DNA from: Candidatus Bathyarchaeota archaeon | GTDB taxonomy: Archaea > Thermoproteota > Bathyarchaeia > Bathyarchaeales > Bathycorpusculaceae | Assembly: GCA_963768425.1 (NCBI GenBank) | Contig: CAVYHV010000025.1 | Span: forward strand, 1 to 48,006 | Direction: 5' to 3' | Length of the DNA stretch: 48,006 bases | Shown here: piece by piece, positions 23,808-27,223 of the stretch | How positions within the stretch are numbered: position 1 is the first letter of the stretch | Layout: each line of letters starts with the position of its first letter | Position numbers and translations under genes: made by a program | Notes under the pieces: model-generated | Told to the model about the DNA's origin: nothing | Databases searched by the model: none | Seen by the model: only the letters and a program-made list of their open reading frames with translations

Positions 23808-25199
23808 ATGAAATATGACGTTATAATTGTGGGTGCGGGGCCAGCAGGCATCTTTTCAGCGCTAGAACTAACCGAGAAAACAAACTTAAACGTCCTCATA
23901 ATCGACAGGGGGCCAGACATTGACAAACGTAAGTGCCCATCTAGCCGAGGATTCGAATGTGTGCATTGTGAACCTTGCTCAGTTCTTTCAGGCTGGGGCG
24001 GAGCAGGCGCCTACAGTGACGGAAAACTTACTTTGTCAACAGAGGTCGGCGGCTGGCTAAATCAGTACGTTTCAACTAAAGAACTTCAGGCGCTCGTTAA
24101 ATATGTCGATAGTATCTACCTGAAATTTGGGGCAAGCGACCGAGTTTACGGCGGCGACAGCGAAAAAGTGGATGAGATCGAACGTAACGCCTCCCTTGCC
24201 GGATTGAAGCTTATCAGGCAAGAAGTCCGTCACATGGGCACGGACAAATGTAGTGAAACCCTTCATCGAATGCGCAAAGAACTCAATGGGAAAATTACTT
24301 TTCACCCAAAATCAGAGGTTAAGGCGCTTCTCACCGAGAACCATCTGATCCAAGGTGTGGAAACTGTTGACGGCGAAAAAATCTTCGGCAAATATGTGAT
24401 AATTGCACCTGGCAGGAGCGGCGCAGAATGGCTTCAAACTGAAGCTCAGGTTCGCGGATTGAAAACTGTGAACAACCCTGTTGACATCGGCGTGCGCGTT
24501 GAAGTTTTAGCCTCGGTCATGGAAAATTTGACTAAGACGCTTTATGAGCCAAAACTCGTTTATTACTCAAAGCAATTTGACGACCAAGTGCGAACTTTCT
24601 GTGTCTCGCCCTACGGCGAAGTCACCACGGAATCCTACGACGGCGTATTAACTGTTAACGGGGGAAGCTACGCGGAAAGAAAAACCGATAACACAAACTT
24701 TGCTATCCTCGTTAGCACTTCGTTTACGGAGCCCTTCAAAGAGCCTATTGCTTATGGCAAATACGTTGCTAGGCTTTCAAACCTCTTAAGTGGAGGCGTA
24801 ATGGTTCAACGCCTAGGCGATTTAGTTGTTGGACGCCGCTCGACACCTGAACGGTTAGCGCGAAGCGTGGTCAGCCCAACTTTGAAAAACGCTACTCCAG
24901 GCGACTTAAGCTTCGTTTTACCCTACCGATACCTAGTAGACATCCGCGAGATGCTTCAAGCCTTAGACGTCATAGCCCCTGGGATCCACTCAAGGGACAC
25001 TTTGCTCTACGGTATAGAAGTCAAGTTTTACTCTTCCCATCTGCAACTTAGTAATTCTTTGGAAAGCAAAATCCAGAACATGTTCACCATAGGCGACGGT
25101 GCAGGAGTCACACGCGGGTTGATTCAAGCTTCAGCTTCAGGCGTAATCGTGGCGAGGGAGATTTTGAAACGTGAGCACTTAGTTGCGGCACAGACCTGA
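23808..25199 (+). CDS. FAD-dependent oxidoreductase
   Basis: YDVIIVGAGPAG, GGAGAYSDGKL, DIGVRVE, GDGAGVTRG; GGAGG upstream of ATG 23808. Confidence 0.92.
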   Translation: MKYDVIIVGAGPAGIFSALELTEKTNLNVLIIDRGPDIDKRKCPSSRGFECVHCEPCSVLSGWGGAGAYSDGKLTLSTEVGGWLNQYVSTKELQALVKYVDSIYLKFGASDRVYGGDSEKVDEIERNASLAGLKLIRQEVRHMGTDKCSETLHRMRKELNGKITFHPKSEVKALLTENHLIQGVETVDGEKIFGKYVIIAPGRSGAEWLQTEAQVRGLKTVNNPVDIGVRVEVLASVMENLTKTLYEPKLVYYSKQFDDQVRTFCVSPYGEVTTESYDGVLTVNGGSYAERKTDNTNFAILVSTSFTEPFKEPIAYGKYVARLSNLLSGGVMVQRLGDLVVGRRSTPERLARSVVSPTLKNATPGDLSFVLPYRYLVDIREMLQALDVIAPGIHSRDTLLYGIEVKFYSSHLQLSNSLESKIQNMFTIGDGAGVTRGLIQASASGVIVAREILKREHLVAAQT

Positions 25200-25245
25200 A
25201 AGCCTGCTTTACGTCATCAATATTTCGACCTTAGCGTTTCTGAAG

Positions 25246-25622
25246 TAATGTTAGGTTATATGTTATAGGCTTAAAATCTTGAAATAAGCATGAAGCTTCA
25301 GGCGAAAACGAAGCGGGATAAAACTTTGGGCAACGCTCTTCTAGACTGTATCAACAAAGTGTATTGACATTTGACCGACCGGTCGGCTTGTACACACAAG
25401 AGAGAACCTACCTCCCCTACCGCACCAGCCACTTTGCTATACCATATAACTCGATACCATAACTGACCATGAAAGGAGAGCTGCAAAGTGCTTAAAGCTT
25501 CTCGTTTGCTCACCTGTATATGCAAAGTGTATATGCAAACTGTATATGCATTGACCCGACCGGTCGGCTTGTGCACACAAGAGAGAGGGGGCCCTTCCTT
25601 GTTGACAAATAACTTAACATTA
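25246..25622. mobile_element. Non-autonomous MITE-like element (377 bp)
   Basis: Left end TAATGTTAGGTTATATGTTA; reverse complement of right end TAATGTTAAGTTATTTGTCA (17/20 identical); flanked by AGCGTTTCTGAA(G) at 25233-25245 and AGCGTTTCTGAA(A) at 25623-25635; no credible ORF. Confidence 0.78.
25346..25586. repeat. Duplicated module: 13-bp TGTAT..CAAA units + CCGACCGGTCGG palindrome + CTTGT(A/G)CACACAAG hairpin
   Basis: Copy 1 at about 25346-25405 (palindrome 25375-25386); copy 2 at about 25514-25586 (palindrome 25556-25567). Confidence 0.9.
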
Positions 25623-25692
25623 AGCGTTTCTGAAAACTTTAAAAGCGACCCTATATTATCAACCAATATTAAAAATAGGCAGAGATGTGAAA

Positions 25693-26229
25693 ATGAGCGA
25701 TAACAGCGATGTATTATCTAAAGTTAAAGGTCAAATGAACCTTCCCGAGCGCATAGCCGCTTTTGTTCCTGGTTTCCGCGGTTATAAGGAAAAAGAAATA
25801 CGTCGTGAAAGCGACAAGCTCATCAGGAATCACTTATACATGAAACTATCAATTGAAAAGACCGATCTGAGAGATATAGAGCAGAAGCTGGCTGACCGCC
25901 GCTACTTCGATGTCTTGACAGACATGGATCGGCTACTAGCCAAGATGGATCGCGTTGTCGAGAAGATTAATCATGCGTCCTATGGGTACAGCGGCTTTTT
26001 TGACGCTGTAAAGGTAAGAGAAGATAACCTTGATAACATGATAGCTTTCGACAATAAGCTTCTGGATGGAATAGTCGCTTTGACAACGGAAATTGATGCT
26101 TTCAAAGCTGACCTTTCCAGCGGCGCAACCTCGAACCTGAAAACTCGAGTTCAAAACGTAACTGACAAACTTGACAGTCTAGAAAACACATTTGATCAAC
26201 GTAACGAAGTAATTATGGGAGTGAGCTAA
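25693..26229 (+). CDS. Helical conserved hypothetical protein (SPFH operon partner)
   Basis: PGFRGYKEKEIRRESDKLIR, YGYSGFFD; 1 bp before the SPFH gene. Confidence 0.8.
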   Translation: MSDNSDVLSKVKGQMNLPERIAAFVPGFRGYKEKEIRRESDKLIRNHLYMKLSIEKTDLRDIEQKLADRRYFDVLTDMDRLLAKMDRVVEKINHASYGYSGFFDAVKVREDNLDNMIAFDNKLLDGIVALTTEIDAFKADLSSGATSNLKTRVQNVTDKLDSLENTFDQRNEVIMGVS

Positions 26230-26230
26230 A

Positions 26231-27223
26231 ATGCCGCAAGTTATAGAATGGGCAAGTTCCAATGCAAATTCCGACGAAATAATCTACAGGTATCCAGTCG
26301 AAGACATAACCTGGGGAGCCCAACTCATTGTTCACGAGTATGAAATGGCCGTTTTCTTCCGGGACGGCAAAGCCTACGATGTTTTTGGCGCCGGCAGGCA
26401 CACACTGACAACACTTAATTTACCTTTGCTTACAGGATTGCTGACGCGCATAGCAGGATTCGGCGCTAACAAGCCGTTCAAAGCAATGGTCCTCTACATT
26501 GCCACTAAAGTTTTCAACGGCAAGTGGGGTACAAGCGCACAAACCACAGAGTTAGCTCCGCTGAAAGTGTTCGGGCAGTTTCTCTTCAAAATTGAAGACG
26601 CCTCGTTGTTTGTGAATGAAGTGGTCGGTGGACAGAACGCTTACACAACGGATGACGTTAACAACTTCCTTCGGGGTTTCTTAAACGAAAAGATAATAGC
26701 GGAACTCTCGCACTACGACTTAATCACTGTTTTTACCAAAATCCAAGAAACCTCGATAATTGTCAAAAACTCAGTTTTAGACTACTTCAAACGCTTAGGC
26801 ATTGAACTAACAGACCTCCGATTCGAAGGTATCGACACAACGCCAGAATACCGAGAACGGCTGTTTTGGCTTAAAACCGGTAGCACTCCAGCCGATACAG
26901 TCTTACGAATGGAAACGGTGAAGAGCGCAGCTGCGTCTCTTGGTCAAGGAGGCGGTGGCGGCGGAGCAGGCCTAGGCACAGGCATGGTGCTCATACCGCA
27001 AATTATGAATTCAGCAGGTCAAGTTCAAGCGCAAGCCCCCACAGCAGCCCTTGTGATATGCCCCAAGTGCGGTGCACATGTTCCAGCTACATCAAAGTTC
27101 TGTCCCGAATGCGGATCCTCACTTACTCCTCCATCACAAGCCACAATCAACTGCCCCAAATGCGGTCACTCGATTCCTGCAAGCTCAAAGTTCTGTCCCG
27201 AATGCGGCGCAACAATTTCGTAG
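26231..27223 (+). CDS. SPFH (band 7, YdjI-like) domain protein with two zinc ribbons
   Basis: QLIVHEYEMAVFFRDG, GRHTLTT.NLP, KWGT; Gly-rich linker; CPKCG..KFCPECG twice. Confidence 0.9.
   Translation: MPQVIEWASSNANSDEIIYRYPVEDITWGAQLIVHEYEMAVFFRDGKAYDVFGAGRHTLTTLNLPLLTGLLTRIAGFGANKPFKAMVLYIATKVFNGKWGTSAQTTELAPLKVFGQFLFKIEDASLFVNEVVGGQNAYTTDDVNNFLRGFLNEKIIAELSHYDLITVFTKIQETSIIVKNSVLDYFKRLGIELTDLRFEGIDTTPEYRERLFWLKTGSTPADTVLRMETVKSAAASLGQGGGGGGAGLGTGMVLIPQIMNSAGQVQAQAPTAALVICPKCGAHVPATSKFCPECGSSLTPPSQATINCPKCGHSIPASSKFCPECGATIS

Follow-up and report, generated by a model that had tools for sequence, protein, structure and literature searches.

A 381-bp non-autonomous element beside an archaeal TATA box carries the ends of an IS6-like cargo transposon family

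We analyzed a 48,006-nucleotide stretch of a Candidatus Bathyarchaeota archaeon (the window), which corresponds to contig C25 of the 2.96-Mb, 91% complete genome G000, and located in it a short inserted element next to the TATA box of a host operon. We consider it likely that this 381-bp element is a non-autonomous member of an IS6-like family of cargo transposons with 9-bp target duplications, moved by the DDE enzyme of that family and guided by the promoter. The insertion itself, its ends and its 9-bp duplication are observed directly, the same ends surround transposase-bearing elements, and the insertions lie at a fixed distance, on one side only, from a BRE/TATA motif. As a MITE the element is ordinary; the promoter-position rule of its family is not.

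We compared the limits of the element with those given in a first-pass annotation, which had placed it at positions 25246-25622 (377 bp, ends complementary at 17 of 20 positions), had seen no transposase inside and had proposed a target-site duplication of 12-13 bp. The 377 bp and their ends are as described, and we found no transposase ORF between them. A 12-bp direct repeat is also present in the window sequence (25233-25244 and 25623-25634), but the target duplication is not 12-13 bp long: it measures 9 bp in the register of the two sister copies on contigs C22 and C28 and in 29 of 30 related elements. The 13th base of the flanking repeat does not match, and a 12-bp reading leaves an unpaired base at the left end (25245). 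In the C22 and C28 copies the termini lie 2 bases further out than 25246/25622. Applied to the window, this register gives an element of 381 bp (25244-25624) between perfect 9-bp duplications on the plus strand at 25235-25243 and 25625-25633, a target found in single copy in the empty alleles described below. Judged from the window locus alone, the length of the duplication is ambiguous between 9 and 12 bp. The 12-bp repeat exists because the terminal bases of the element match the flank, and both deviations of the window copy's ends from the local consensus lengthen the flanking repeat to 12 bp. The window copy is also without one base found in all three empty alleles, and its TATA box is thus found at offset 5 rather than 6.

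The left terminal inverted repeat (25244-25265, plus strand, 22 bp) is decayed and agrees with the family end at 16 of 22 positions, the right one (25603-25624, minus strand) at 19 of 22. They are complementary to each other at 17 of 22 positions, and TGTT is retained in both. A search of genome G000 for ends matching at 17 or more of 22 positions together with a 9-bp repeat returned the window element as the only match among 15,849 repeat pairs, and two shuffled-genome controls returned 1 and 0 matches (7,030 and 7,234 repeat pairs). Ends and 9-bp repeat by themselves are only modestly beyond chance; decisive for the reality of the insertion are the empty alleles and the sister copies. We rejected a structured-RNA reading of the element, as positions 25150-25750 gave no Rfam match at E≤1. 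The ends show motif likeness to integron attC and Xer/dif sites, a reading that we dropped in view of the 9-bp duplications and the DDE transposase found between such ends.

Copies with different flanks and an empty site with a single target had been proposed as checks on the insertion, and both were found. The empty site is represented by one genome (G035) and by contigs from two public sequencing runs (X5 and X3). In G035 both flanks align (86% and 89%) around a single copy of the target, and the X5 and X3 contigs join across the element site, one of them skipping 390 bases. The filled left junction is present with 0 differences in a contig of run X1, a run that may not be independent of the assembly. 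Genome G000 contains three complete copies with duplications: the window copy and the copies on C22 (211 bp, duplication 9/9) and C28 (212 bp, duplication 8/9), both of which have flanks different from those of the window copy. The window element is non-autonomous and MITE-like, and must have been moved in trans, as originally suggested.

Elements with the same ends were sought outside this genome. A degenerate end pattern scanned over 120 genomes of the genus revealed inward-facing end pairs 0.7-5.8 kb apart in Bathyarchaeia. The exact 19-bp end matched 104 times in the GTDB collection, and of 80 records listed for the family end, 67 carry Bathyarchaeia in their titles. From the matches, 80 loci were fetched. 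Of the fetched loci, 33 resolve into 20 distinct pairs and 47 are unpaired, two alternative inner pairings (L151, L206) having been left out. The duplication is 9/9 in 16 of the 20 pairs, 8/9 in three and absent in one, and identity at 12 bp is at most 5/12 in all 20. Ten pairs enclose a transposase gene, which is broken in three, and ten do not. The duplication is likewise 9/9 in every one of ten more elements that we selected by their transposase, disregarding an internal 8-bp chance pair in L331. Taken together, a 9-bp duplication is present in 29 of the 30 related elements and an IS6-like zinc-finger DDE transposase in 20. The autonomous members are 2.2-5.8 kb long and carry passengers to either side of the transposase. 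A cTGTt motif occupies positions 5-9 in the family end; the tips are GA in the autonomous relatives and mostly CG in the G000 copies. PADLOC at E≤1e-10 assigned 17 of 71 cargo proteins, in 13 of the 29 elements scanned, to defence types comprising methyltransferases, type I specificity subunits, GmrSD-like HEC-06 and SspD. Insertion at promoter edges would explain how defence genes can move around these genomes and leave host genes unbroken. In some members (L151, L172, L206) a second copy of the end lies 26 bases inside the first.

The transposase of the family has about 300 amino acids, an N-terminal four-cysteine zinc domain and a DDE core formed by D111, D170, E210 and K217. It scores 70.8 and 72.8 bits against PF13610 (cut-off 27), and 129.6 and 123.8 against the NCBI IS6 model NF033587, the first value exceeding the cut-off of 125 and the second falling just short of it. 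The 9-bp elements group in a clade of 13 rows, with support 97/93, within a tree of 30 rows. A transposase bounded by the same ends, which the first-pass annotation had suggested looking for, thus occurs in other genomes (20 elements), but none was found in G000: the G000 assembly contains no cognate transposase, its best match being 34-35% identical and in a separate clade, with other ends and an 8-bp duplication. The intact IS6-like enzyme of G000 itself, encoded on C9 and 35% identical, falls in a clade separate from the 9-bp elements. It belongs to a 3.3-kb cargo element of the other branch (L267, C9:92838-96112) with perfect 50-bp ends, an 8-bp duplication, a 371-aa transposase and a TATA-like word 5 bases beyond its duplication. 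We set the C9 transposase aside as the mobilizer given its other ends, its 8-bp duplication and its separate clade, although some cross-mobilization of the window element by this enzyme is conceivable. We instead infer that the zinc-finger DDE transposase of the IS6-like family would have moved the 381-bp element in trans. Autonomous elements with CG tips were found neither in genomes of the genus nor in metagenomes. The metagenome search gave 32 matches, of which one is homologous to the element (L272, at a site matching C9) and 0 have a transposase; the others look like chance matches in other organisms. Genome G000 also has two unpartnered family-type ends. One (L365, C7:5520) is identical to the ends of a 48-50% subclade, and the other (C3:14340) is preceded by a 3' transposase fragment of another clade.

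We compared the family to described IS6 elements. It shares with the IS6/IS26 family a PF13610/NF033587 DDE transposase, the cTGTt motif within the end (positions 5-9) and the existence of short non-coding derivatives that keep both ends, and with the longer clade-h members a zinc finger in the transposase (Varani et al. 2021, PMC7986276). The passages of that review on the family describe 8-bp duplications, GG tips, cTGTt and caaa motifs and elements of about 800 bp with a transposase gene only, together with two MITEs and one passenger-carrying member, ISDsp3; in contrast, we find 9-bp duplications, GA or CG tips, no caaa motif and autonomous forms of 2.2-5.8 kb with passengers. The same passages give no promoter targeting. 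Since the elements depart from IS6 in tips, duplication length and size of the autonomous form, we refer to them as IS6-like. Closer in tips and duplication are the archaeal elements ISH15 (CG/CA ends, 9 bp) and ISPfu5 (GA ends, 9 bp), in a comparison made by description only; the article that lists them doubts that the archaeal members belong in IS6 and argues that a separate family may be needed for them (Harmer and Hall 2019, PMC6807381). As described there, these are 0.7-0.85-kb single-gene elements with transposases of 211-237 amino acids, whereas the enzyme here has about 300 amino acids, an N-terminal zinc domain and accompanying cargo. Our literature searches, which covered sources other than ISfinder, subscription papers and supplements, returned no description of the element family or of TATA-anchored insertion, and the words TATA, promoter, passenger and Bathy are absent from the main text of a 2026 survey of archaeal insertion sequences (PMC13343696).

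We next considered the position of the insertions relative to host promoters. The first-pass annotation had noted a box before an SPFH operon, and a TTTAAAAG box is indeed found at 25638, about 50 bp upstream of the first gene of the operon. The BRE and TATA box occupy 25631-25646 on the plus strand (TATA 25638-25645), score 8.8 bits and are conserved in the empty alleles. They are followed, outside the element, by the first two operon genes (25687-27223, plus strand), a 180-aa ORF whose product matches no family above cut-off and an SPFH/band-7 protein with zinc ribbons; SPFH is thus the second gene. The oxidoreductase gene is adjacent to the operon only in G000 and G035, and in many congeners (L003-L013) it is separated from it by about 0.8-1.1 kb of other DNA. 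The promoter matrix was trained on 1,162 upstream regions of G000, from which it recovered a BRE-TATA motif. Reading outward from 70 distinct ends (11 non-Bathyarchaeia loci left out), we counted 23 TATA-like hexamers that start at offsets 6-8 beyond the duplication, and no other offset has more than two. Outward positions 10-21 show a compositional bias, first A-rich and then T/A-rich, and the duplicated 9-mers share little sequence. In the discovery set, 15 of 22 rebuilt target sites score above 4 bits at matrix offsets 6-8, a window chosen after the profile had been seen, compared with 6.7% of 4,000 random intergenic sites (z 9.3); four of the 22 score below 2 bits. L200, which has no duplication, was excluded from this test. 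For the held-out elements the window was fixed beforehand, and 10 of 10 pass with 5.2-9.8 bits, each on one side only (two sites share a host promoter, leaving nine independent). The matrix peak comprises 15 sites at offset 7, with 6 and 5 at the neighboring offsets and at most 4 elsewhere, and the transposase points both ways relative to the TATA box (6 and 4). The window site has its TATA box at offset 6 in the empty alleles, as is usual for the family. Insertions of the family thus lie about 5 bases upstream of a TATA box, and closeness to the TATA box is a family rule rather than incidental.

It had been suggested that the insertion could affect the promoter. The core promoter (BRE/TATA) of the SPFH-containing operon is, however, left intact by the insertion. 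With the bases that adjoin the BRE restored by the duplication, the host promoter would remain functional, and only sites further upstream of the BRE would be displaced. A BRE/TATA-like site (25616-25631, minus strand, 8.6 bits) arises at the right junction and reads back into the element; it may be a hybrid promoter or matrix noise.

Several explanations other than promoter-guided insertion by the family enzyme were weighed. The original proposal, a MITE of the IS4 family or of a casposon with a true 12-13-bp duplication, draws on the perfect 12-bp repeat around the window copy and on the presence of 16 PF01609 (DDE_Tnp_1; IS4/IS5/IS1182-type) matches in G000. None of the 16, however, is bounded by these ends on both sides within 3.5 kb (the best pair agrees at 22 and 15 of 22 positions), and a 12-13-bp duplication conflicts with the 9 bp of the sister copies and of 29 of 30 relatives and with the low identity at 12 bp in the 20 pairs. 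No PF01867 (Cas1) match was found in the 91% complete genome and no Cas1 family among the proteins from end-bounded elements (23 scanned with Pfam, 71 with PADLOC), and elements bearing these IS6-like ends carry an IS6-like enzyme. Both leads now appear extremely unlikely. It is also conceivable that insertion is untargeted and that selection purged copies that hit genes or broke promoters, sparing those upstream of TATA boxes. Indeed, all sites are fixed insertions in natural genomes that have already passed through selection, and promoters are abundant in intergenic DNA. Yet under selection an insertion anywhere upstream of the BRE should be tolerated, whereas the peak is 1-3 bases wide, and the random null was already intergenic; we regard this explanation as very unlikely.

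The main competitor to guidance by host factors is a transposase that reads the BRE/TATA DNA itself, by sequence or bendability, without a host transcription factor. The A-rich and then T/A-rich bias at outward positions 10-21 could come from a direct preference for sequence or shape, and contact of the transposase with TFB or TBP is itself presumed. On the other hand, the duplicated 9-mers have little in common, the signal is one-sided in nearly all elements, where a symmetric transpososome reading DNA would tend toward a palindromic bias, and the matched words vary in the way real promoters do. Direct reading thus seems doubtful. For the fixed position we infer a different cause: a core promoter bound by TBP and TFB would guide the transposase to a site about 5 bases upstream of the TATA box. 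If insertion is targeted at all, guidance by TBP/TFB is the mechanism that we prefer, with some reserve.

TBP and TFB are common to archaea and eukaryotes. A single-offset landing upstream of an archaeal BRE/TATA would parallel yeast Ty3, the closest mechanistic analogy, which likewise uses a DDE enzyme and, through TFIIIB/TBP, integrates at a set distance from Pol III promoters with little harm to genes (bioRxiv 10.1101/2021.07.27.453949). Ty3 differs in being a eukaryotic LTR retrotransposon with a chromodomain that inserts near the start site of tRNA genes, with its contact seen by cryo-EM (bioRxiv 10.1101/2021.07.27.453949). Unlike Ty3, the family described here consists of DNA elements upstream of the BRE of protein-coding genes, with a presumed factor contact. 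Such elements may be of use as a safe-harbor integration tool for archaea.

We then investigated the interior of the element, where the first-pass annotation had missed a doubled control module of 13-bp repeats that occurs in about 25 copies in the genome. Core 1 (25347-25400, minus strand) has two 13-bp repeats accompanied by a 12-bp palindrome and by a hairpin-like 14-mer, and corresponds to the upstream control region of a regulator gene. Core 2 (25515-25581, minus strand) has three 13-bp repeats of another sequence type with the same palindrome and hairpin, and is 95% identical over 84 bp to C6:247757. Genome G000 has 25 copies of the oriented core, two of them inside the window element, and an element end of at least 16/22 lies near 9 of the 25. 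The core directly precedes the start of a 111-aa gene that is intact on C30 and decayed elsewhere. Of 120 genomes, 41 contain homologues of this regulator. Among 29 homologous genes, 25 have 12 or 13 bp as their best upstream period, and 18 score at least 13/20 at period 13, a value that none of 110 control windows attains. A decayed, frameshifted 5' stub of the same gene appears to make up the 68 bases next to the left end (25266-25333, minus strand), with about 22 codons from a TTG start at 25333 and cut by the left end. The evidence is weak but in register: a coding-only DNA profile gives a value in four of five copies, 2.1 bits in the window copy and 4.1, 2.5 and 1.1 in others, with none for C22 (maximum 1.8 bits in 1,200 shuffles), and the C9 copy of the stub is still in frame. 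Stub and upstream core together indicate that, in the basic unit of about 211 bp, a pair of ends encloses the 5' control region of the regulator gene along with its first codons. The regulator gene itself was not found inside cargo elements in 130 end-bearing loci; only the core was found there, in three loci from two genomes.

The regulator protein has no Pfam, PHROG or PDB sequence match. Its structural model (pLDDT 81) has an extended N-terminus, two helices and an extra C-terminal helical domain, and residues 7-52 weakly match DinJ (Z 4.9, rmsd 3.3, 44 aligned) and RelB (Z 4.8, rmsd 3.2, 46 aligned); the best Foldseek E value is 0.71. Ribbon-helix-helix autorepressors of the CopG/Arc/RelB/DinJ type have short repeats directly upstream of their own gene. 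The regulator resembles them in its extended N-terminus followed by two helices and in the short repeats before its gene, and is unlike them in its extra C-terminal domain, in the 12-13-bp period and in that most repeat copies are without a gene. It is a probable ribbon-helix-helix repressor, and the core is probably the autorepressor operator. The 13-bp repeats could alternatively serve an element of viral origin as a signal for replication or packaging. In favor of this, the regulator gene has a terminase-large-subunit-like gene as its neighbor at five loci, each from a different genome, and at two of these loci it is found between tRNA genes. Against this, the repeats lie directly before the start codon across homologues that are 38-85% identical, 9 of 14 wide loci have no viral neighbors, and the only proteins to which the N-terminal 50 residues align are DinJ and RelB, both of the ribbon-helix-helix type. 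We consider a viral signal unlikely.

Next to the regulator gene on C30 (L253:15153-17610), and likewise in L254, L257, L258, L264 and L265, we found a two-gene module composed of a 101-104-aa ORF and a 487-490-aa terminase-large-subunit-like gene (phrog_2, E 5e-37), in either orientation. It is located between tRNA-Leu and tRNA-Thr in G000 and G086, and no further virus-like ORFs are evident around it among the ORFs scanned. L058 (G035:C2:153.7-155.7 kb) and L259 resemble a stack of decayed units: after the intact regulator gene come additional 3' fragments of it, with small RHH or PIN-like genes in between.

The window copy also suggests that miniatures place a probable operator at the edges of promoters and undergo recombination with its approximately 25 dispersed copies. 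More tentatively, it is possible that an archaeal IS6-like branch docks on TBP-TFB and inserts just outside the BRE, so that its miniatures deliver repressor operators beside host promoters. This would amount to a genome-wide safe harbor, a prokaryotic counterpart of Ty3 targeting, and the one intact repressor gene in G000 could bring new genes under its control.

The 381-bp copy is chimeric. Between the two cores, about 100 bp (25411-25510, plus strand) were captured from the C14 locus: they align to it in G000, and also in G084 and G086, in which the sequence continues into a DUF1015 host gene. The captured DNA contains a decayed right end (approximately 25437-25458) together with the final five codons and the stop codon of the DUF1015 gene (25492-25509, minus strand), and is joined to Core 2 by a 5-bp microhomology (about 25506-25510). 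Contigs in run X5 represent single-core forms that skip 174-184 bp. Compared with the unit of about 211 bp, this copy has gained about 170 bp, comprising the second core and C14-locus DNA. It is likely that dispersed cores recombined, before or after insertion, and that this would have added both segments. A stretch that includes a C14-type locus (L139, G121:C8:1300-20900) has a long inverted duplication at both of its ends, 18.8 kb apart and enclosing housekeeping genes, which is either a real inverted repeat or an assembly artifact. At C14 of G000 (L050, C14:360086-360131), two cores flank a right end that meets a left end with exactly 9 bases between them. G084 and G086 lack this 227-bp addition, and its 9-mer recurs 7 bases outside the left end at C9:181914; the junction may represent a looped-out circle that re-entered by homology.
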